A DNA stretch of 64,000 bases from Candidatus Poribacteria bacterium (GCA_026710795.1 JAPOQK010000023.1:1525-65524), one strand, 5' to 3'; positions 524 through 39,164 are shown, counted from the stretch's first letter. Notes: generated by a model not told the origin, from the sequence alone. Numbers and translations: made by a program.

Positions 524-3500
524 TTAAAATGTACTACCTATCCGAAAATAAAACGGAACTGTGAACACGTCGTCTAATGTGATAAGAGGAACTGCGTAAT
601 CTACTCCAAAAATTAATGGACCGAAGTTTAATCGTAATCCCATACCAACTGAAGACGGTATCCATTTGTACTCAATATCTCCTACGGAATCCCATACATT
701 ACCTGTATCAAAGAAGAGAACTCCATGAAATGGATTATAAATTGGAAAACGCATTTCGGTATTAAAAATGAATTGGACATTTCCACGATGTTTACCAGTA
801 CTATCTTCAGGACCGAGTCCTCTCTCCTCATATCCTCTCACTGTCGTACTACCACCTGCCCAGAATCTTTCAAAGGATATTAACTCTGCTTCATCGTTAT
901 TGTTTAATTGTAAACCGGGTGTATAACCGAACCGCAAGGCATTGGATAATACAAAGCCACGCACAGGTAATTGTCTATGATATTCTGTGTCTGATACAAA
1001 TTTTATAAATCCGCTTTCCCCACCTAAAACCCCACCAGCATATTCAACTGATACTTCGTTAAGCATGCCAGATATAGGGTTTATAGAAGGTATGCGATTA
1101 TCTTGTCTCCATAAGAAACTTAGACTACTAACTGTCGTAGATGGGTTCGATATCAACGGAATTACAGACGAAACTTTCTCAGTTGTATCCTTTAGATACC
1201 GATAGTTGTATTGCAGATTCAAACGGTGCGAACCAAGTAACTTTCTACTCAAAGTAAAACTACCTTGTAAAGCTCTGACATCGTCATCTTCTTCCAATTT
1301 GCGCCCCAGAAATTGTAAACTTCCACTTGTTCTGCCTATCAACCAAGGTTCAGTAAGTGTCGTATCATATATATATCCGCGCGTCCCCCATCTGCCACGC
1401 AAGTGAAATCGAATATTACGTTTGAATAGATTGAAATGACTAAATGCAATTGTACCACGTGGTCCATGAGACGTGCTATATCCAACACTGGCACCGTAGG
1501 TTCTTGGTAAGCGTTTCTGAAGTCGTATTGTGACATCGTTGACTTTCGGTTCAGGGAATGCCTCAACAACTTTATCATTATCACTTATGTTTACGGTATT
1601 ATTTACTTCACTTGTTGGAAAGTCGAACTTGGTTTGGATACCTGGTTCAAAAACTCTTGTGTTGTAAAGATTTTCGACAACAAGATCCAACTTTTCTGTC
1701 GTAAAAAGAGTTCCAGGTAAATTTGCAACTTCGCGATATAGAACCCTTGGAATAACTCCTGTGTCACCTGCAAAATTAAACTTCCCAAAGATAATCTGGT
1801 CACCTTCAACAATATCATATTGAAGAACACCATGTTCATAAACCGAAAGATGTTCCTTTTCTTGATCCAGTGTATAACGAGCGTTACCATCTACATCTTG
1901 GATACTCCATTCAGAACCAATACTTGTCAATGTACCTGAAAGTGAAAGACTGTGTTCACTAAATGCATCTCTCAATTTTTTAGGCAATGTGCCAGAATTA
2001 AGATTTCCTGAATAATCTCCTGAAATCTGAAAAACTGGGGTATCCACTTTATGTAAATATTCTGTTTTTTCTACTTTCGCATAGATATACCCTCGTTCCT
2101 GATATGCTTTTAATATGGCGTTTTCATACTTTTTCTGAACAAGACTGGCATTTGGTTCTGGTGGTTTACTTGGTAATGCATTGTAGAGAGTTACGTCATT
2201 AAGCACCCTGTTTCCCAGAAATTGACATCGGTTAATCATCTCTTTTGTAGGTTCAAAAATAAAGAGATTAATTGAGACTTCACCATCACGCTGTTTATTG
2301 TCGTTATGTTTAATTATTTTTGATGTTATTTCTACATTTCTATATCCTGCCTTTTCATACAAAATCTCTAATCTGTTAATATCCCTTTCAAGCGCAATGT
2401 TGGAAAAATAACGTTTTCTTATATGTCTTGAGAAGAAATTAACCGGCTTGGATTCCATTTCGCGAAGCAATTCTTTGTCGGAAAATGCCTCATTCCCTTC
2501 GAATTCTAATGTTGACACAAAATATCGGATACCATGTTTGACAGTAAATTCTATATGGAGAGGAGAATTCGTTAATGTCCTCGATTTTACTTGTGTTCCG
2601 TGATATCCCTTTGCCTCAAAATGAGTTCTAATTATATCTACCCAACGTGATCTATCGTTGATTAATTGTTCTATTTTTTCTCTCAACTGGTCTCTTTCTG
2701 GTACTACGGTTTCAATATCCAATATTGACAAAAACTGACGAAGAAAGGACTCATTTAGTATTGGTTTACCATTCTCATCCACAAAATCAAGTAAGAGTTG
2801 TTTACCTTCAATAATTTCGTATATCAATACACCACTATTGTGTTTAAAGGAAGACTTTATCACTGTACTTGGATAATACTTTTTTCTATATAGTTCTTGG
2901 ATTGATCTTATGTCTTCATTTACTGTAGATTTCCTATAAATCTGATCTACATTGAGATAACATACTTCCTTAATGTGTTCTGTGAATATCGATGAATTGC
3001 CAATAATTATAAATTCAGTAACATAAGTTGGTTGACCTATTTTAATTTGGTATGTGATGTTCCCTTTTTCAGGTATAGTATCTATTTCTACACTGACATC
3101 AAAATAACCGTTATCTGCACATATTGCTTTGATTGTATTAACATCATCATTAGCAATATACGGTATATATTTATTTCCTGCTTTTAATCTAATTGATGAA
3201 TCAATTACACGTCGAAGTTCATCTGAAACGTCCCCTACAATATTGACTTTTTGTATGTGCATCATCTTGGCTAATTCATATTTTAAAATAACACCTTCTG
3301 GAACAAAGGTAGTGTAAACATCAATTTGCGCATAGGTCTGTTCTGAATAGATAGAGGTAACGCTTTGCTGAACAGCATTCCGAGAAAACGGTGAACCTAT
3401 AGATATTTGAGTCAGTCTTAACAGTTTGCTGAGTAACTCTGTCTCTGTAACAGGAATTGCATCAATTACAAAATCAATCTTTACAATTGCATTCTGTTGA

Positions 3501-3661
3501 GAAGTTTCTATATTTGATTGATTGGAATTATTATCGTTGCAAAGGGCAGGAATTGTGTTTTGGTAAAAGAGGATAATACATAAAACAACAATTGGAATAC
3601 GACTCACAATACTAACAACAAAATTGGATTTCTGAGTATGTTTTTTTCCATGATTACACAT
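524..3661 (-). CDS. bamA: Outer membrane protein assembly factor BamA (Omp85 family), 1045 aa
   Basis: N-terminal signal/TM, long POTRA-like region, C-terminal beta-barrel with aromatic-rich terminal motif (...FYFRIGSTF) typical of Omp85. Sits directly downstream of the tamB-like gene. Confidence 0.8.
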   Translation of the reverse strand: MCNHGKKHTQKSNFVVSIVSRIPIVVLCIILFYQNTIPALCNDNNSNQSNIETSQQNAIVKIDFVIDAIPVTETELLSKLLRLTQISIGSPFSRNAVQQSVTSIYSEQTYAQIDVYTTFVPEGVILKYELAKMMHIQKVNIVGDVSDELRRVIDSSIRLKAGNKYIPYIANDDVNTIKAICADNGYFDVSVEIDTIPEKGNITYQIKIGQPTYVTEFIIIGNSSIFTEHIKEVCYLNVDQIYRKSTVNEDIRSIQELYRKKYYPSTVIKSSFKHNSGVLIYEIIEGKQLLLDFVDENGKPILNESFLRQFLSILDIETVVPERDQLREKIEQLINDRSRWVDIIRTHFEAKGYHGTQVKSRTLTNSPLHIEFTVKHGIRYFVSTLEFEGNEAFSDKELLREMESKPVNFFSRHIRKRYFSNIALERDINRLEILYEKAGYRNVEITSKIIKHNDNKQRDGEVSINLFIFEPTKEMINRCQFLGNRVLNDVTLYNALPSKPPEPNASLVQKKYENAILKAYQERGYIYAKVEKTEYLHKVDTPVFQISGDYSGNLNSGTLPKKLRDAFSEHSLSLSGTLTSIGSEWSIQDVDGNARYTLDQEKEHLSVYEHGVLQYDIVEGDQIIFGKFNFAGDTGVIPRVLYREVANLPGTLFTTEKLDLVVENLYNTRVFEPGIQTKFDFPTSEVNNTVNISDNDKVVEAFPEPKVNDVTIRLQKRLPRTYGASVGYSTSHGPRGTIAFSHFNLFKRNIRFHLRGRWGTRGYIYDTTLTEPWLIGRTSGSLQFLGRKLEEDDDVRALQGSFTLSRKLLGSHRLNLQYNYRYLKDTTEKVSSVIPLISNPSTTVSSLSFLWRQDNRIPSINPISGMLNEVSVEYAGGVLGGESGFIKFVSDTEYHRQLPVRGFVLSNALRFGYTPGLQLNNNDEAELISFERFWAGGSTTVRGYEERGLGPEDSTGKHRGNVQFIFNTEMRFPIYNPFHGVLFFDTGNVWDSVGDIEYKWIPSSVGMGLRLNFGPLIFGVDYAVPLITLDDVFTVPFYFRIGSTF

Positions 3662-3663
3662 TA

Positions 3664-6600
3664 TCAGAAACGCCGCTCCAATAGTTGGATGTCCACTCCA
3701 AAGTCACCCTTTTCATCACCTTCGACTTTGATTGACATATTATTAGGTAACGGATAGATAGCAATAATGTGGCGTTCCTCAGGATCAAAACCAGATGAGA
3801 CAGTGAAAGTGATTCCACCAATTGATCTTGATATCGAATTACCCGGTAATAGAAGTGCCAGTACTTCCGCTTCAGTAAGTGTTTCTGCTGTTGAAGAATT
3901 GAGTAACTCAGATATGTATGTAGGTTTATTATTCTGTAATGTACCCGTAATTGTTAACCTAACATTTACATCTGTTGTGCCTCCATCTTCAAGTAGAACA
4001 CCACGAATAGGATTTGGAAGTCTTAGTATAATATTTAAATCAGGATTAAATTCACGTGGGTTATGATTACGGATACTTGATCCTGGGACAATTTCGAAAA
4101 TCTGTGTGACAGTACTGATCCTTCCTTCAAGGAGGTATATATCCCCAACAAATATTGGTTCTTGAATCAGTCCTGTCAGACGTCCACTACCATTAATTTT
4201 AATGACGGTAGATCCACCAAGAGAGGATATGAATCTAATATTGTCTGGAATTTCAATACCAACATCTAACTGAAGGTTATTCAATATAGTATTACCAACT
4301 GCAAGTTCTACCTGACTTACAGTCGCACCACTAAACCACTCTTGTACGCTTTCCCAATTTTGTTCGTAATCACCCGAATGAATGATTATATCACCACTTA
4401 TGGTTAGATTAGACTGAATCGATTCATCTAAATTTCCATACAAGTGCAGATTATTGTCACCTGTACTGAGTGTTGCATTGTATTGACCGGGTTCAACAAA
4501 ACTGCAATTATCCATACTAACATTTAGATCCAAATAATTGAAACTAAACCAGTCAGAGTGAAGATATCCTGATGCGAAAAAATTACCATCGTTTAATTCA
4601 CCAAATATTGACACAATTTGCAGTTGGGATTCCGTTAATTCAATCTGAACATCTGTTTCACTTATGGAAATAGGAGAACCTTTAATTGAGAAAGATAATG
4701 CGTTGAATTCACCAATACCTGTAAGTTGTGGTTCATCAAGCGTTCCAAATATAGTGGCTGTGACCGAACCATCTCCCTGAACAGATTCAAATGTCGGTTC
4801 AATATCTGACAACATTCCTAACTCGTCCATCGTCAATGTACACTTGACTTCCATCGGGTCCATAACCGGTTCGACTTGCATATTAGAGAAAGAAATCAGA
4901 TAAGGAATATATCCTGAACAGGTAAGTTGATTTCCACCAGATTTTAGAAGTAAAGGGTTACTTTCCTCAATTAACCACTGTTTGGATCCACTGTTATAGT
5001 TGATTGCTCCATTGAATTCATCAATTTTTGCTTGATTAAGAGATAAGTTATCCCCTTCAAAACTAACAGTTATATTAGGTTCTGCATAAGTTCCTGTAAT
5101 ATTTATACCAGTTGATACTAAACCCCTTAGTTTATACGTATCAAGATTAGCTTCTGAAAAAAGCGGATCACAAATTGAAAGATCGAAATTGGTTAGTTTA
5201 AAGTTGAGTAGCATTTTTCCGCGCATATTCCATCTACCATAACTGCTGATTACCATTGGCAATATCGATTCATCTGCCTTGTTTGCGACTGTATTTTGTA
5301 GTTTTAGTTCAGAAACTGTGAATTCACCATTATTCAAATTTATCGGTATTGATGAAGGATTGACAAATCTGAAAAGTTGACCTAATGCAGTAAAACCACA
5401 GGAAAAATTATCAATCCTTAAATCAGCATAAGAATTCTGGCTAACAGCATCAAAGGTTAGTAATTTACTTATTTTAGGTAAAGGTATTCTGTCCCCATTT
5501 TCAAAAAAACTCTCAAACGGTATTATCAACTTCTCCAGAGTCGCGTTCACCGTTCCCTCTATATCCTGTATCAAATTACTTGATATATTCTGCTGTAATA
5601 ATGAACCAAGGGGGTATTCCTTTAATTTTAGACCATTTATCTCTAATCTTTTTGGTGTTAATCCATCCAATATTAACTGACTATGTTGGAATGGTAGAAG
5701 ACTTACCTCTCCTTCATCCAAATCAAATTGAAACTCGGTTAACTCAATAACGTCTTCTCCATTATTATGTTTACCAGCCTGAATTTGAATGATAACATTC
5801 TTAAATATTTGAGGTATATTTTTGTTACGAAGATGGGGGGCATGTACATATACATTTCCCTGTAAATGGAGCTTGGGCAAAGTGCCTGTTAATGCCAAAT
5901 TAATATCAGATACACCTTCAACTTCGGAAATTACATTATTAAGCCAAGGGAAAAAAGTGAGTGGTAATTCATTTCCACTGAGTGTGATATTTGTCGGCAC
6001 ATCTATGAATCTCTCAACAAACTTTTTATCCGATAAGGTCATATCAAATGGGATTATACCTGCAAGAGTCAGATCATTTTCATTGTCGGTTAGTTTTATT
6101 TCAAGTTTAATCTGCTTTTCTGTATATTGTATATTGCTATGCAACTCCAAAGGCATATCTATTTCATTCTGTTGTGAATGTTTTATTTTACCTTGTTGTA
6201 GGACCTCTACGGTTGGAGAGGTTAGGGTTCCACCAATTCGAGCGTCTACTGCAGTTTCAATTATTGGAGAAGTAATTTGGATAGGAAAATGGGAATTTAC
6301 ATTATTATTCTCTAAATTGAAGTCAATTCTTGAGTTATTGAATATATGAAAATCTTGAGTGTACAAATCCATTTCATCTATCTTACATTTAGCTGAAATA
6401 AGTTCAGACTTAATTCCTTTACCTTTTAAAGTAACAGACCCACCCAATGTACCTGTTAGAAAGGATTGGTCTTGACTGATAAATCTGACAAAATCATCTA
6501 CCTTCAATTTCTGAAAAGATACATCAAAATCATACATAATATCATCTCTTTCTTGAGTAGAAATTGATGTCTCACCAGTAATCTGGACACTTCCTTGACC

Positions 6601-9600
6601 AATATTTCCATTGATAACTAATTCCTGTATATTTACAGAATTCTTATTGATAGTAGTAAGAGCTTGGAATTGTTTCAATGTAATCGGTTCAGTCAACATA
6701 CCCAACTTTATGGGATAATTATCAATCGTATGAGCATTGAGATTAATGTTAGTTTCAAGAAAACTACCATTCAAGTTCACTGTTACATCCTGAACACCTT
6801 GAAGGAAAGTTGTATCTCCCAACATAAATTGGTCCAATGCATCTTCAGATAGAGCGTTTTTTACAATATTTGAAAACTGTGCCAAATCAAGATAATCGGA
6901 TATTATATCTATGTTTAGTCTTGACCTATAAAGGTCATTTTGATTGACAGAAACAGTACCACCTACCTGTACAGAATTATCCATTAAATTCAATTTAAAT
7001 GGTTTTATTGACAGAACGTGATTTTGATATGTCAATTGTCCATTTGTATTACTAAAACTAATATCCCCCAATTTAGTATCAACAACTAACGATGGTATTC
7101 TCCAACCTAATTCTACATTAGGATCACTTATCGTACCTGTCCATTTTAATTGATAATAACCACTTCCGGAAATTGGTATATCAAACACTTCACCTAAATG
7201 TGCAAGAACAATATTGTCATCTGAATTTGCTGAGATATCTACCTTCTCATTTTTCAAATTCAAACTACCGTTGAGATTAACGAATGACGTTTTTTCTCCA
7301 ACTACGGTCAGTGAACTATCAGCAATCGTAAGGATGTCATTCTCTAACAACATAAATATAGGCTTTGGATTTGTAAAGTTGACGGTTTTATACTGTAGTT
7401 GAGTATTGTTTATAGTTATTTCAACATCATAAGGATGAATAGGTTTATTGTTAGGATCCACAGAATTTGGCGTTAAATCAGTAAGTGTTCCTTCAACTTT
7501 AACGTTACCATCTGCGGAACCAGAAATGGTTTCAAGCCTTTTATCAAAAATACGGAGAATAGGTGTAACTGATATTCCATCACACTGCAATGTGAATTGA
7601 TAAGGATTATCTTTGATGTTGAAGATTTTTCCGTCAATCCTACCTGTGCCTTCAAATGCTTCACCTGTAAATTTAAAATAATCCAATTCTTCAGTATGTT
7701 TATTTCCCTCTACGAGGGTAGCAAACATAGTAGCATCACCGAGAGGATTTCCATCAAATGTCAAGTCAGAAAAGTCAAAGTCGACTTTAAAAACAAAATC
7801 TTCATTCAATTTCTGATACGAATCAACATGGATATCCAATTTTCCATCAAGCGGAAAGTCAGTTATGTCAGCAGCAAGGGCAACTTCTGCTAATCGAATA
7901 GGTTTGCCAACTTCATTCTTAAGACTAAAATTGAATGCCCCCTCATTCGTAACATGAGCATTAAAAATAACCAGTTGATTCCGTGTAGTAATTTCAAAAT
8001 TTGGAATAGTCAGGGAATAGTCGTCTATTTCAAGAGACATCATCACTGGATCTATATTTATCTCCCATGCATTACCAGATTCAATTGAAAATAGACCTTT
8101 ACCGTCGAGATGATCAATAAGGAACCCATATAAATTTAGTTCACCATTTATCACACCTTGTATAGGAAGTTCTTGCTGAAAAAAGAGTCTATTATAGTCA
8201 GAATCCAGAACAAGTGGGTCTGAAACTATGTTAAATGTTGCGGGTAGTTTATCCGCTAATTTGACATTCCCTTCAATAGAAACCTTTGTTTCTCCAACTT
8301 CACCTTTTTTAACAAGATGTGCATTTTCTATATATACAATTTTATCTGAATACCGAAAATACCCTGTTAATACGCCAAGTGAGATTGGTGTCATAAAGTC
8401 ACCATAAGAAGTTTCAGGGATTTCAACATATCCAGTAGCAGTCCAATCTTTCTTGATCTGTGCGGTAATACTTCCTATTCCTACGAAGGGAACAGTGTTT
8501 ACAATATCGCATATTTTGCCAAAATCAAAATTGTCTATTCTTAATTCAACCTGTTCCAATGAACCATTCATTTCAACAATTGCATCATCCAACATGCCAT
8601 TTACAGTTATTGTTGATCCTATGTTCTCTTCCAAATTAATGTTACAATTCAGAGATGAATCTTTCAATAAAACAGGTTCTGTCTGTCCATTTGCCTGTAA
8701 AGATGATTCTGATAGTTCAATATTACTTTCCAGATGAAATTCTCCTTCTGCGCCACCATTAATCTGTGCTGTTCCGTTCAATATGCCAGATTTAACCTGC
8801 GGTGCATCTTTAGGAATTTCTACTAACATTGATAAAAGAGAATTGAGTTCCATATCTGAAATTTGTAAATTACTTTCATATTTGATCGGATATTTGAAGA
8901 ATTGCTGTAGTCTATCAAAAAGATTACCTTGTATGCTACTATCTAATAAGACTTTTCCATTACCAGACAATGTGCCACCAGCGATATGCATATTGATTTT
9001 TTCTAAAATTACATTCGGTTCACTGTCTAAATTCAAAATAGTATTGATATTTAAATCAGTTATTTCAATCTTCCTTGATTTAAACTCAGAATTATCTGTT
9101 GATGCACCTATGTTGTGTTGGACAGTCAGTGCTTCTGAAGTGACGGTTAGATTACCTTGTAAAGTAGAATCTGTTCCGCTAAAATCCAATGTTACCTTAC
9201 CTACACCTGCAAGTTGAGTTTGTTCATCCAAAAAATATTGCACATCTGCGGCATCAAATGTTATTTGTAAACCTGCATTCCACAGTCCAGTACTCCAGTT
9301 TCTTTTATATTGATTAACAACTATTAAGGAGTTTCCAATTTGTAATTGAAGTGGTTGAAGTTCCTCACTATTCGTAGCTAGTGCAAACTTCACACCATGA
9401 ATCCGTTCAATTGGCATCTCCACACCATTAAGTGTGATGTTACCTTTACCTATAGAGAAACTACCTGAATGATCCCATTTATCTAACTTACCACTTAACT
9501 TAACCTCTATTTCTGGAATACTCACTTCAAATTGCTTTTCCTTATCAACAAAGTATATCTCACCACCATTGACTTTAAAGTTGGATATTGCAAACGCGAA

Positions 9601-35473: not shown

Positions 35474-35769
35474 TTTACTCCTACTATTATTATTTGACAG
35501 TGTTTATATGTTTATTTATATGTTTATTAGTATGCTTTGTAGCATAAAGAGATTTTACAGGTTTTTATTATGAGATTTGTGTATTCAAGAGCATTTATTC
35601 CAGAAATTACTTTAAATGAAAACCGAGTGTGTTACTTCGGTTTGACCAAAACATGGATATACTAACATAAATCTTACCAAATTGGTAATCTTTTTGACTT
35701 TAATTTTCTAAGTAATTACTGTTAGTATAATACTTTCAATCTATAATATAATTCATAGGAGCAATTTTT

Positions 35770-36120
35770 ATGGACTCTACACTAAATTTTCTACTGACAA
35801 CGGTTACTCTTGTATTCCAAATTGCATTTATGGGATGTCTCCTGTATTTATACATTAAGACAAAAATAGCAGGAGTTTTACTGATTTGGATTTCTCTATT
35901 AATGTGGAGAATCATGAATTGGATTCTTGTAAAGATTCTCTTTAGTTTACATACGGGATCTACACAAATAGGTGGTCTAAGTAAAATGATGATATATAGC
36001 ATTATTTCTCATGCTACTGTATGGTTGTTCTTGGTAATTTGCTCATTAGGGATAATGTGGATATATCATGAATTGAAAAGTGGTAAATTAGATAATTTTT
36101 CATCATATGATAGGTTATGA
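35770..36120 (+). CDS. Small hypothetical membrane protein (3-4 TM)
   Basis: 116 aa, highly hydrophobic. No recognisable motif. Confidence 0.35.
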   Translation: MDSTLNFLLTTVTLVFQIAFMGCLLYLYIKTKIAGVLLIWISLLMWRIMNWILVKILFSLHTGSTQIGGLSKMMIYSIISHATVWLFLVICSLGIMWIYHELKSGKLDNFSSYDRL

Positions 36121-36227
36121 CTTGGTAATCATTACACAACATTGTGCAAAAGTAACATTTTGTAACTTTGTCCTCAATAGATATAACAAAACAAATGAAC
36201 TGATAACATCCTTTCCATATACAAACA

Positions 36228-37121
36228 ATGCAAGACGAACTTACACCCTTCATTCCTTTTGAGAAACTGAGAGGAAGAACCCTCGTGTGTTGTTTCTTTC
36301 TCTCAGCTTTCTTGAGTGGTGGCATCCACTTTGTACTTCACCTTGCTTGGTCTGACAATAGCCAAAATCTATCAGACGCAGTTGGAGGTATACTCTTTCA
36401 TGTAATCTTTGTAATTTGTATTTCCCCGATCCTATTGCGTTCGCGTTTATCTTACAAACAATTGTTTGGTGTCTATCCAACTTGGTCTATGCTTGGAAGG
36501 TACTCTTTATGGACATTTCCACTCATAATCTTTTCTACTATAATCCTCTATTTACAATATTTGACTTTACACTATCTTATCCCTGAATTCGCAGATTGGT
36601 GGTTTTTCACAGATAACTCATCTATTCCAAATTCTGCAGGTGAGGGATATGCACTTGTAAATGTGTTAGTTTTTATTGACTTAGTACTATTTGTTCCTAT
36701 AGTTGAAGAGTTTTTCGTACGAGGTATTTTGTTAACGCGATGGTCCATAAAATGGGGTACACCTAAGGCAATCTTAGTTTCATCCCTATTTTTTGGCATA
36801 CTTCATGTTGATGTCATTGGTGGTTTTTTCTTTGGTTATGTCTTATCTACCTTATATATACGTACAAAGTCACTGTTTATCCCAATTTGTATTCATATAT
36901 TAAATAACCTCATTGTATGGGTAATTGGGGTTATTCTGAAACCTCTGGATGAAACACTTCCAGATAATGAACAATTCCTGATGGAAGGATCTGATTGGGT
37001 ATTGCTTACTTTAGGGTCAGTAATTATTATACCTTGGACTATCAACTTCATTAGGAGAAACTTGCCAAATAAAGAATGGCGTGTTCCTTACCTCGCCAAA
37101 ACCGTTCCATTGAATAATTGA
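36228..37121 (+). CDS. CPBP-family (CAAX/Abi) intramembrane metalloprotease
   Basis: Multi-TM. EEFFVRGILL (EExxxR) and FFGILH (FxxxH) motifs diagnostic of the CPBP/Abi family. Confidence 0.7.
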   Translation: MQDELTPFIPFEKLRGRTLVCCFFLSAFLSGGIHFVLHLAWSDNSQNLSDAVGGILFHVIFVICISPILLRSRLSYKQLFGVYPTWSMLGRYSLWTFPLIIFSTIILYLQYLTLHYLIPEFADWWFFTDNSSIPNSAGEGYALVNVLVFIDLVLFVPIVEEFFVRGILLTRWSIKWGTPKAILVSSLFFGILHVDVIGGFFFGYVLSTLYIRTKSLFIPICIHILNNLIVWVIGVILKPLDETLPDNEQFLMEGSDWVLLTLGSVIIIPWTINFIRRNLPNKEWRVPYLAKTVPLNN

Positions 37122-37295
37122 ATCATTATGTATTGTTATTTGTAAGTTTGGTATTTTCCATGTCATATATTTCACGGTTATTTTTATAACAATGGTCATT
37201 TTCAGGTATCATCAGAAAATGAAAATGTCTTACGTATACCGATAGAATATGGTATACTTTAAGTTAGTGTCATTACATTATTTGGGGAAGAGAGT

Positions 37296-38645
37296 ATGAG
37301 TATTACACAATTCACATTGGAAGAGGTACGCTGCTTCGGAGAACGACAAACTCTTGAAATTCGACCTTTGACCTTTTTAGTCGGAGAAAACAGTACTGGC
37401 AAAACTACTGCCCTCGCTTGTTTCCATGTGTTGGTTAACTATTTGCGTGGAAGAGGAGTAGATTTCAATGAAAAGCCTTCAAATCCTCATCCTTATTCAT
37501 TGGGAACCTTTAAGGATATCGTCAGAAACAGTAATAATAAAGAAAAAGCCTTTAAACTTGGTTTTACTTCTAAATACGCTAACGATGATATAGAATGGAC
37601 AGTTGAATTTATTGAAAGGCAGGAAGCAGTTGAACCTAGTATCAGTTTAGTATCCATTGTATTTCCAAATGGTGAAGTCGTTTTTAAAATCAAAGACTCA
37701 TTGGAAAAACCCTTTGGTATGGAATCCTTTGATAGTAATAGACACCAATATCATTTAGTTTGTAACTCTAACATAATTTCTCAATTTCCACTGAGTCATA
37801 TCTTGGATAATTTGGATCATCTACCAATAAATTTATTTAAAGAAGACTTACAAAGTGCAATGGCACTTGTAAAATATTTGAAGAGTCTTACTAATCCTAT
37901 AGAAGTCATGGCTGAACCATGGGATTTGTGGTACAATCTTTCTATATTAAGTACATCACCAATACGTTCCCGTCCTGAACGCACCTACGATCCAATGAGA
38001 GAGTTTAACGATCCTGAAGGAAGCGATATTCCCCTGTTGTTAATGCGATTAGATGCAGCACAAAAAAATGAATGGGAAGGAATAAAAAAACACCTAGTAA
38101 AATTTGGTAAGAGTTCAGGCTTATTTCAGAATATAAGAATCAAAAAACTAGGACATTCACTGGGTGATCCATTCCAATTGCAATTCAAAGTCAGAGGTCC
38201 TTCTTCTAATATCATGGATGTGGGTTACGGTGTAAGTCAAATTTTACCTGTTTTGGTTCAAGTATTATATCCTAGTATTTCTCGTAACAATAAACGCACT
38301 TATTCAATGCCGTCCTACGCTTTACTACAACAACCTGAAGTGCACCTACACCCAAAAGCACAAGCAGAATTTTCTTCTCTGTTAGCAAAATTGGCAAACC
38401 AGGGTAACCAGTCATTCATAGTTGAAACACACAGTGATTATATGATTGATCGGGCACGGATTGAAATCAGAAATGGTAACATCAAACCTGAAGATGTATC
38501 GCTAATCTACTTTGAACCGAAAGGAAATATTGTCAAAGTACATAATATAGGTTTTGATGAAATGGCGAATCTAACTAATGTGCCAAATCATTATAGACAG
38601 TTTTTCCTTAATGAATCTAAACGACTCATGGGATTTGAGGGTTAA
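37296..38645 (+). CDS. ABC-type AAA family ATPase (AAA_15/AAA_21-like; DUF3696-type C-terminal region)
   Basis: 449 aa. Walker A (LVGENSTGKTT) near the N-terminus. Long insert. Walker B/D-loop LLQQPEVHLHP and H-loop ETHSD near the C-terminus, typical of the OLD/AbiL/Septu-like ATPase clade. Confidence 0.7.
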   Translation: MSITQFTLEEVRCFGERQTLEIRPLTFLVGENSTGKTTALACFHVLVNYLRGRGVDFNEKPSNPHPYSLGTFKDIVRNSNNKEKAFKLGFTSKYANDDIEWTVEFIERQEAVEPSISLVSIVFPNGEVVFKIKDSLEKPFGMESFDSNRHQYHLVCNSNIISQFPLSHILDNLDHLPINLFKEDLQSAMALVKYLKSLTNPIEVMAEPWDLWYNLSILSTSPIRSRPERTYDPMREFNDPEGSDIPLLLMRLDAAQKNEWEGIKKHLVKFGKSSGLFQNIRIKKLGHSLGDPFQLQFKVRGPSSNIMDVGYGVSQILPVLVQVLYPSISRNNKRTYSMPSYALLQQPEVHLHPKAQAEFSSLLAKLANQGNQSFIVETHSDYMIDRARIEIRNGNIKPEDVSLIYFEPKGNIVKVHNIGFDEMANLTNVPNHYRQFFLNESKRLMGFEG

Positions 38646-38646
38646 T

Positions 38647-39075
38647 ATGTGTGCGATTTTGGATACAAATTCTTTCCATAAATTCAAAGACAGCACAGAT
38701 GAAGATATGGAAGAGGTATGGAGGTGGTTGGAAAGAAGAAACGGTAAAATAGTCTACTCAAATATCCCTAAATTTGAAGAGGAATGGTTTAAAGGTGGAA
38801 TGCATCCTTTGAGAGACCAACTTCTACGCTCTGGACATCTCAAGTTGGTATCTAAGGGTGTCCAAGAAAAGTCAGATGAACTTATAGGAAACATTAAATC
38901 AGACGATAATCATATTATTGCGTTGGCAATAATTGCTGGTGTAAAAATTCTCATTACCAACCGTAAGGGAGACAAAGATTTAATCACAGATTTTAAAAGT
39001 AGCGAATTTGTTAATGGGAAGGTATATACAACAAAAAAGCATGCTCACTTACTAAAGAAAGACACTTGTCCTTAA
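38647..39075 (+). CDS. Small PIN-like domain protein translationally coupled to the upstream ATPase
   Basis: ATG at 38647 lies 1 nt after the ATPase stop (TAAtATG). MCAILDTNSF… (PIN strand 1 with Asp), acidic stretch DEDMEE…, then DNHIIALAIIAGVKILITNRKGDKDLITDF resembles the PIN hhT-N…DF motif. The track's 38578 start gives an unlikely N-terminal extension overlapping the ATPase. Confidence 0.45.
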   Translation: MCAILDTNSFHKFKDSTDEDMEEVWRWLERRNGKIVYSNIPKFEEEWFKGGMHPLRDQLLRSGHLKLVSKGVQEKSDELIGNIKSDDNHIIALAIIAGVKILITNRKGDKDLITDFKSSEFVNGKVYTTKKHAHLLKKDTCP

Positions 39076-39164
39076 CTAATGATAAAATGTGTTAGATTGT
39101 TACATATCCGACAAGACGATAGTGGTATAATAATACATAATCAAGACTTATATGGAGATTTCTT

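Follow-up and report, generated by a model that had tools for sequence, protein, structure and literature searches.

A conserved operon of a DUF3696-clade ABC ATPase and a VapC-like PIN protein in Candidatus Poribacteria, probably a new family of the ATPase-nuclease kind of defence system

Pairs of an ATP-binding cassette (ABC) ATPase and a nuclease, among them PARIS, Septu, Gabija, Menshen and HEC-03, constitute a major class of bacterial immunity. Described here is a candidate member of this class, a pair of genes for an ABC ATPase and a PIN-domain protein that lies in a stretch of 64,000 nucleotides (nt) from Candidatus Poribacteria bacterium (GCA_026710795.1 JAPOQK010000023.1:1525-65524); this whole stretch is called the window, and positions are counted from its first letter. 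Two described systems come closest to the pair. HEC-03 is a two-gene system of an ABC ATPase and a VapC-like PIN protein that lowered the plaquing of phages in E. coli; both genes were needed for this, and induction was apparently toxic (Payne et al., bioRxiv 10.1101/2024.01.29.577857). In PADLOC-DB (PDLC04147/PDLC04148) the PIN protein is named HEC-03A and the ATPase HEC-03B, and the letters are reversed in the preprint. Menshen, or NsnABC (Millman 2022; Li et al. 2025, PMC12065111), contains the ATPase NsnB, whose DUF3696 tails are predicted to clamp the N-terminal PIN-like domain of NsnC. This system needs NsnA (ParB-DUF262 and ParBDB), and the PIN domains in it, which are fused to other nucleases, are inactive; acidic active-site residues are missing from all inPIN families (PMC12065111). 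Additionally, dyads of an OLD-ABC ATPase and a PIN endoRNase are mentioned in a comparative-genomics survey (PMC12839542). A first-pass annotation of the window, made from the DNA alone, had regarded the pairing of ATPase and PIN protein as unnamed, a view that cannot be upheld in the light of HEC-03, with its shown anti-phage activity, and of the dyads noted computationally.

By analogy with HEC-03 as the tested example, the pair of the window probably represents a new family of the "ABC ATPase + PIN nuclease" kind of defence system. Judged by sequence, it falls outside both HEC-03 and Menshen as these are currently modelled and, because the membership tests for the two systems fail, it is read as a large family of its own. 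A defence or toxin-type role, as proposed in the first-pass annotation, is still the best reading.

The core element is a two-gene ATPase-PIN operon. In the window, a single nucleotide separates the stop codon of the ATPase from the start codon of the PIN gene, and a GAGG lies 6 nt before this ATG (GAGG-GT-TAA-t-ATG). Conservation of the arrangement was followed in 80 species-representative genomes, almost all from Poribacteria and complemented by sponge-type "Latescibacterota" metagenome-assembled genomes (MAGs): the ATPase gene immediately precedes the PIN gene in 79 of them, and the remaining locus is truncated by a contig end. The same order was found for distant members of the PIN family looked up singly (4/4) and for all 55 diverse metagenome loci that have 1.3 kb or more of upstream sequence, and the C-terminus of the ATPase is present in each of the 25 metagenome loci with a shorter upstream stretch, giving 80/80 for metagenome loci with a GC range of 0.32-0.69. 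The spacing between stop and start is -1 to +5 nt in 124 of 134 loci, the partner ATPases measure 430-490 amino acids (aa), and the recurrence of the pair in 160+ independent loci is beyond chance. The two genes are therefore coupled and conserved together, as had been anticipated. Flank clustering and Pfam and PADLOC scans of 124 neighbour proteins from 27 diverse loci revealed no third conserved gene; these neighbours vary in size and family, and the commonest Pfam family among them occurs only 4 times.

The downstream gene encodes a PIN protein. Its open reading frame (ORF) spans positions 38578-39075, and the conserved start (MCAILD...) at 38647 yields a protein of 142 aa; the homologues all start with MC and have lengths of 138-144 aa. 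Fold comparison was needed because sequence and profile searches of the window protein against PDB sequences gave chance matches only. An AlphaFold2 model generated from 29 homologues (predicted local distance difference test score (pLDDT) 91.9, predicted template modelling score 0.87) displays a Rossmann-like PIN fold of the VapC type. The motifs ILDTNSF and DNHIIALA...ITNRKGDKDLITDF, present in the window protein, fall on conserved PIN positions. Compared with the Pfam PIN model (PF01850), the window protein reaches 16.2 bits (E=0.017) at a gathering cut-off of 23.6 bits, and 44 of 67 diverse family members match the model at E<=0.01 (best 3.9e-11). Residue conservation was counted in 132 sequences, i.e. 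the window protein and 131 representatives at 50% identity. Here, D6 is conserved in all 124 sequences that have this column, E46 in 126/132, and both D87 and D109 in 132/132. In an alignment with K. pneumoniae VapC (7by2), D6 and D87 fall on catalytic Asp residues, and the contexts S85-x-D87 and S/T104-x-D109 are typical of VapC. The window PIN appears to carry an intact D-E-D-D metal site like that of VapC ribonucleases. Further conserved residues are non-canonical for PIN domains: Cys2 (118/118 sequences with the column) and Cys141 (130/131), which give the family its MC... start and ...CP end, as well as H89, D115 and Y127. Fold and acidic residues together bear out the earlier description of the small protein as PIN-like.

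This PIN family is large. A HMMER search of 1.84 billion representatives, clustered at 50% identity, detected at least 1,556 clusters at E<=1e-3, of which 705 reach E<=1e-10; standalone proteins of ~140 aa make up almost the whole set. Neither PADLOC v2 nor NCBIfam recognises the PIN-ATPase family, and in Pfam it receives only a generic match. The defence inventories of uncultured lineages, especially of sponge symbionts, therefore probably undercount it.

The upstream gene encodes an OLD-type ABC ATPase. The window protein matches AAA_15 (6.3e-21) and AAA_21 (1.5e-14) in Pfam. Among the PADLOC models, NsnB is the best match (1e-42), with a profile covered to position 340 of 345; PDC-M55A (8.9e-37) and the HEC-03 ATPase model (1.8e-23) are also matched, and further matches include AriA (1.5e-24), Old (4.9e-14), GajA and PtuA (both ~1e-10). 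A profile search of the PDB retrieved the OLD protein 6p74 (5.1e-13) and PtuA structures. These assignments extend to the family, as all 36 diverse partner ATPases match NsnB (best 1.4e-47), PDC-M55A and the HEC-03 ATPase model. DUF3696 of Pfam is matched by 15 of the 36 (best 3.9e-07), in agreement with the DUF3696-like character that had been ascribed to the protein.

The consensus motifs of the ATPase family are a P-loop GENSTGK[TS], DVGYGVSQ, LLQQPEVHLHP and ETHSD. In the 36 homologues, G30, N32, G35 and K36 of Walker A are invariant, as are P347, E348, H350, L351, H352 and P353 of the Walker B/D-loop, where Q345 and Q346 are nearly so, and E377, H379 and D381 of the H-loop. The family also shares a conserved tail (D..GN....P..YR.FFL.E.). 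Compared with a canonical ABC/OLD ATPase, Walker A and H-loop are intact, whereas GYGVSQ replaces LSGGQ, the Q-loop site reads PIRSRPxRTYDP with R in place of Q, and the D-E site of Walker B is occupied by Q-Q. The ATPases of HEC-03 and PDC-M55A share with the window family the R-for-Q loop, the GYG signature and a non-canonical Walker B, which reads E-Q in both; the NsnB site is E-N (PMC12065111). Because this site is Q-Q, E-Q or E-N, the whole clade is non-canonical at Walker B, and the window family most of all. Conservation is unevenly distributed along the protein: the mean frequency of the top residue is 0.23-0.29 in aa 91-215 and 0.47-0.70 elsewhere.

A mechanism can be drawn by analogy with HEC-03, Menshen, Septu and PARIS, from which we infer a physical complex, a trigger, a substrate and a defence phenotype. 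The ATPase would oligomerise, as its relatives NsnB, PtuA, AriA and GajA suggest, and the C-terminal DUF3696 tails of the oligomer would hold the PIN protein inactive; docking of the PIN protein on this tail is modelled on the NsnB-NsnC prediction (PMC12065111). The poorly conserved insert at aa 91-215 may have a sensing role, responding to a phage-derived trigger or to a change in nucleotide state. Since Walker B reads Q-Q and not D-E, a switch driven by ATP binding is more likely than one driven by fast hydrolysis. Upon triggering, the PIN protein would be released or activated and would cleave RNA (tRNA, rRNA or mRNA), and the growth of the infected cell would stop. The natural Q-Q Walker B makes the family a test case for ATP binding alone gating a nuclease effector.

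The features of the locus are compiled in Table 1. Four genes are adjacent on the + strand of the window, namely a membrane ORF, a CPBP protease, the ATPase and the PIN protein, and Poribacteria MAG entries that are 100% identical to the window ATPase and to the window PIN were found by database match. All genes, motifs, the junction and the flanking genes named in the first-pass annotation are present. Upstream of the module lies a threonine dehydratase gene on the minus strand (NF004771, 1.7e-109), preceded by a + strand thiamin pyrophosphokinase gene. Downstream follow a Vgb-lyase-like gene, a lipoate-protein-ligase-like gene (1.3e-24), PhyH and a minus-strand gene of the enolase superfamily. 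The GC content is 0.34 at 35500-39100 and 0.41-0.42 in the adjoining metabolic genes; segments of equal AT-richness are found elsewhere in the window.

Table 1. Positions of the ATPase-PIN pair, its motifs and adjacent features in the window.
Feature	Position	Strand or location	Basis or remark
Small membrane protein, family "c4", 116 aa	35770..36120	+	No Pfam match; frequent Poribacteria-specific neighbour, outside the core
CPBP (Rce1-like) intramembrane protease, 297 aa	36228..37121	+	Pfam PF02517, 9.4e-19; adjacent, outside the module
Terminator-like hairpin, 8-bp stem followed by T-rich tail	37234-37257	CPBP-ATPase spacer	Pattern match only
ABC ATPase, DUF3696 clade, 449 aa; proposed sensor and regulator	37296..38645	+	Pfam and PADLOC profiles
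Walker A / P-loop GENSTGKTT, aa 30-38	37383..37409	+	Conservation among 36 diverse homologues
Variable ATPase insert, aa 91-215; candidate specificity/sensing region	37566..37940	+	Low conservation
Degenerate Walker B / D-loop LLQQPEVHLHP, aa 343-353	38322..38354	+	Q-Q at the D-E site of ABC ATPases
H-loop ETHSD, aa 377-381	38424..38438	+	Conservation among 36 diverse homologues
DUF3696-like C-terminal tail, ~aa 386-449; proposed PIN docking site	38451..38642	+	Pfam DUF3696 matches in the family
Coupling junction: GAGG, TAA stop (38643-38645), one base, ATG start (38647-38649)	38637..38649	+	Read in the sequence
Standalone VapC-like PIN protein, 142 aa; proposed nuclease effector	38647..39075	+	Fold and conserved acidic residues
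PIN acidic residues D6 (38662-38664), E46 (38782-38784), D87 (38905-38907), D109 (38971-38973)	38662..38973	+	Alignment of 132 sequences
PIN Cys2 and Cys141	38650-38652, 39067-39069	+	Family alignment

A 15-nt inverted repeat (14/15 complementary) at 37125-37139 and 39127-39141 exactly brackets the ATPase-PIN pair. Flanking inverted repeats were not above shuffled controls in 44 related loci, so the repeat of the window is treated as probably a chance occurrence in AT-rich spacers, and the idea of a mobile cassette marked by such repeats was dropped.

The CPBP protease, included in the module by the first-pass annotation, is a neighbourhood resident outside the module. Its orthologues occur in 2 of the 80 related loci (L009:2357-3223 and L010:8494-9372; 3/81 with the window), and no CPBP gene is found among the neighbours of the 27 diverse loci. 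In both related loci it sits between the PIN gene and the Vgb-like gene, whereas it is upstream of the ATPase in the window. As its side differs between genomes, either the pair or the CPBP gene has moved within a hotspot by the Vgb-like gene. The hairpin in the spacer of the window fits separate transcription of the pair and the CPBP gene, as far as the sequence pattern indicates.

Several other genes recur at this hotspot. Upstream of the pair, the Poribacteria loci have genes for small membrane proteins, HExxH proteins, VWA proteins or sulfatase-like proteins. Members of the small membrane protein family, ~115-140 aa in length and with no Pfam match, were located by a family hidden Markov model (HMM) next to the pair in the window and in 24 of the 80 Poribacteria loci (e.g. 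L016, L022, L030 and L031); they are sometimes tandem-duplicated and occasionally downstream of the PIN gene, and the same HMM shows them to be absent from the non-Poribacteria loci. The ~240-aa HExxH protein (FAHELFHCW), also with no Pfam match, is upstream of the pair in 14/80 Poribacteria loci (e.g. L018:5700-6425 and L001:5770-6507) and may represent an accessory gene of this hotspot that resembles metalloproteases and is uncharacterised. Both families are treated as lineage-specific hotspot cargo. Between the PIN gene and the Vgb-like gene of some Poribacteria, genes for secreted trypsin-like proteases (cluster c35; L038:8440-9513, L033 and L063), assigned by sequence reading and not by HMM, often occur as tandem pairs and are a further sign of a variable hotspot.

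In five Poribacteria loci (L053, L058, L046, L057 and L075; around 2800-8430) the order hsdM-hsdS-ATPase-PIN is found on one strand, and the hsdS stop overlaps the ATPase start by 4 nt in L053 and L058. No hsdR was found downstream in these 8-kb stretches, where the following genes are recN-like and indolepyruvate-oxidoreductase-like by inspection. As the large downstream genes are not hsdR, only adjacency to hsdM-hsdS can be claimed, and the idea that the pair is embedded in a type I restriction-modification (RM) operon was dropped.

Outside Poribacteria, the context of some loci is clearly one of defence or mobile genes. Neighbours there include genes of type III RM, Wadjet JetCD, HEC-01 and PD-Lambda-5; at one locus (L082) the pair is accompanied by patatin/SMODS (CBASS-like) genes, two methyltransferases and another AAA_15 ATPase, and L081 and L084 adjoin transposase genes. 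A number of observations weigh against the assignment of the pair to a new defence family. Defence neighbours are a minority, and many loci are flanked by housekeeping genes. Stable retention of the kind seen in Poribacteria is unusual for a defence system. Searches of plasmids by tblastn, with the window PIN and with two distant members as queries, revealed no relatives, and neither did a tblastn search of phage records with the window PIN or a scan of viral contigs; a Foldseek comparison with viral structures likewise produced nothing meaningful. The window PIN remains under the Pfam threshold. None of the 67 PIN family members matches the HEC-03 PIN model at E<=0.01, and the window PIN does not match it even at E<=1. 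An hhalign comparison with two HEC-03 PINs is colinear and aligns all four acidic residues, but is not significant (E=0.063). Finally, the structure model of the ATPase (pLDDT 54) is too poor for testing the idea of a complex.

The alternative that retains most plausibility, and is nevertheless unlikely, is a toxin-antitoxin (TA)-like addiction or stress module, in which the ATPase takes the place of VapB beside a VapC-type PIN toxin and which stabilises its region or slows growth without a part in phage defence. The VapC-like fold would suit such a toxin, as would the lack of a VapB-type partner, since the ATPase is the sole conserved neighbour; the pair is also stably retained in Poribacteria, and some loci adjoin other TA or Abi genes or transposase genes, the latter at L081 and L084. 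However, HEC-03, the closest tested system of the same architecture, is a phage defence that needs both genes, and every characterised relative of the ATPase clade is a defence component. The TA-like and defence readings overlap mechanistically, because abortive infection is itself toxin activation.

More doubtful is a domesticated housekeeping module of Poribacteria for RNA processing or quality control that is inherited vertically and has no immune role. It would account for the presence of the pair in about 130 species representatives of Poribacteria and Latescibacterota at few syntenic chromosomal positions, with a ThDP (thiamin diphosphate) enzyme downstream in 35 loci and a Vgb-like/LplA block downstream in about 20, including the window, as well as for the lack of relatives on the plasmids, phages and viral contigs searched. 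Sequence identities across the 80 loci point in the same direction, as the ranges for the ATPase (53-68%) and the PIN protein (43-68%) overlap that of the neighbour LplA (63-71%). On the other hand, the immediate flanks are variable hotspots in which the accessory genes change from locus to locus, the side of the CPBP gene on which the pair lies changes between genomes, and the ATPase insert is hypervariable. Outside Poribacteria, moreover, the pair is found in unrelated contexts, including defence islands and transposase neighbours. The earlier view of an inserted accessory module therefore holds in part: it agrees with the variable hotspots, but not with the retention of the pair in about 130 species representatives at few conserved positions.

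It is highly improbable that the pair is a degraded Menshen system from which NsnA and the nuclease half of NsnC have disappeared. All 36 ATPases have NsnB as their best PADLOC match, and NsnC starts with a PIN-like domain predicted to bind NsnB; yet the PIN protein keeps the D-E-D-D quartet that is absent from every inPIN family, and its family is coherent, with at least 1,556 clusters of standalone proteins of ~140 aa. In addition, none of the 27 diverse loci has a same-strand gene of NsnA size ahead of the ATPase, the 25 neighbour families listed for them include no ParB/DUF262, and no NsnA-like gene is found upstream in the Poribacteria loci, where the large recurrent genes encode a VWA protein and, by inspection, a TPR-rich repeat protein. 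A single four-gene system of small membrane protein, CPBP protease, ATPase and PIN protein is scarcely credible as well. All four genes are adjacent on the same strand in the window, and members of the membrane protein family occur next to the pair in 24/80 Poribacteria loci; however, only 2/80 related loci have the CPBP gene, which there follows the PIN gene, both families are missing from non-Poribacteria loci, and a terminator-like hairpin lies between the CPBP gene and the ATPase.

If the pair is a new ATPase-PIN defence family, as is favoured here, it links HEC-03 and Menshen by combining an NsnB-like ATPase with a PIN protein still catalytically equipped, and thereby bears on the origin of the PIN adaptor of Menshen. 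A bolder and rather speculative extension is that the family preserves a minimal, ancestor-like state of the DUF3696-ATPase systems, in which an NsnB-like ATPase is gated by ATP binding and works with a still-active PIN protein. The inactive PIN adaptor of Menshen would then be derived, through toxin fusion and the recruitment of NsnA, and the pair would have become near-fixed and vertically inherited in Poribacteria and sponge-associated Latescibacterota.

Among the known systems, PARIS (AriAB), Septu (PtuAB), Gabija (GajAB) and OLD resemble the pair in joining an OLD/AAA_15-type ABC ATPase to a nuclease effector that it regulates. They differ in the effector, which is a PIN protein here and not a TOPRIM, HNH or DUF4435 protein, and in the ATPase, which is DUF3696-tailed and has no fused nuclease in the window; no TOPRIM/DUF4435, HNH or TOPRIM-plus-helicase partner is conserved near the pair in the 27 diverse loci. 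With VapBC the pair shares the VapC PIN fold and the acidic quartet, whereas upstream of the PIN genes of the window family an ABC ATPase is found and never a VapB-type antitoxin gene. PDC-M55, an untested PADLOC candidate, is similar in its ATPase, as PDC-M55A is matched by the window protein. However, a bona fide locus on a Bacillus plasmid (L165) pairs this ATPase with the 352-aa PDC-M55B, the model of which does not match the PIN family, and hhalign of the PIN family with the L165 partner gives a probability of <1% over 21 columns.

Closer correspondence is seen with Menshen. The window ATPase is nearer to NsnB than to any other PADLOC model, ends in a DUF3696 tail and is followed by a gene of PIN fold, compare NsnC; a degenerate Walker B, the R-for-Q substitution and a GxG signature are common to both ATPases. 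In contrast to NsnC, the window PIN is standalone, lacks a C-terminal toxin domain and keeps D-E-D-D.

HEC-03 differs from the pair in several respects. Its ATPases are just 21-26% identical to those of the window family, and the HEC-03 ATPase model is matched by the window protein (81 bits) over aa 262-433 only and by the best of the 36 family members at 6.9e-37, again in part, whereas bona fide HEC-03 loci on Aeromonas and Rhodococcus plasmids match it over the full length (7e-134 and 4.5e-110), with PIN matches of ~2e-24. Walker B is E-Q in HEC-03 and Q-Q in the window family, and Cys2 and Cys141 of the window family are absent from the HEC-03 PINs. Both inspected HEC-03 plasmid loci also have an extra gene that is absent at the window pair. 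This gene, annotated as "RNA ligase family protein" and without a PADLOC model, follows HEC-03 at L167:5295-5996 and L166:5958-6557, and may be an unrecognised third component of HEC-03, for example in RNA repair or reversal. The likeness to HEC-03 lies in the architecture, reproduced by the window pair, of a DUF3696-clade ABC ATPase gene and, behind it, a small gene for a VapC-like PIN protein that overlaps it or is coupled to it, and in the motifs common to both ATPases: the P-loop, PxRxY at the Q-loop site, DVGxGxSQ, xQPExHLHP and E[ST]HS[DE].

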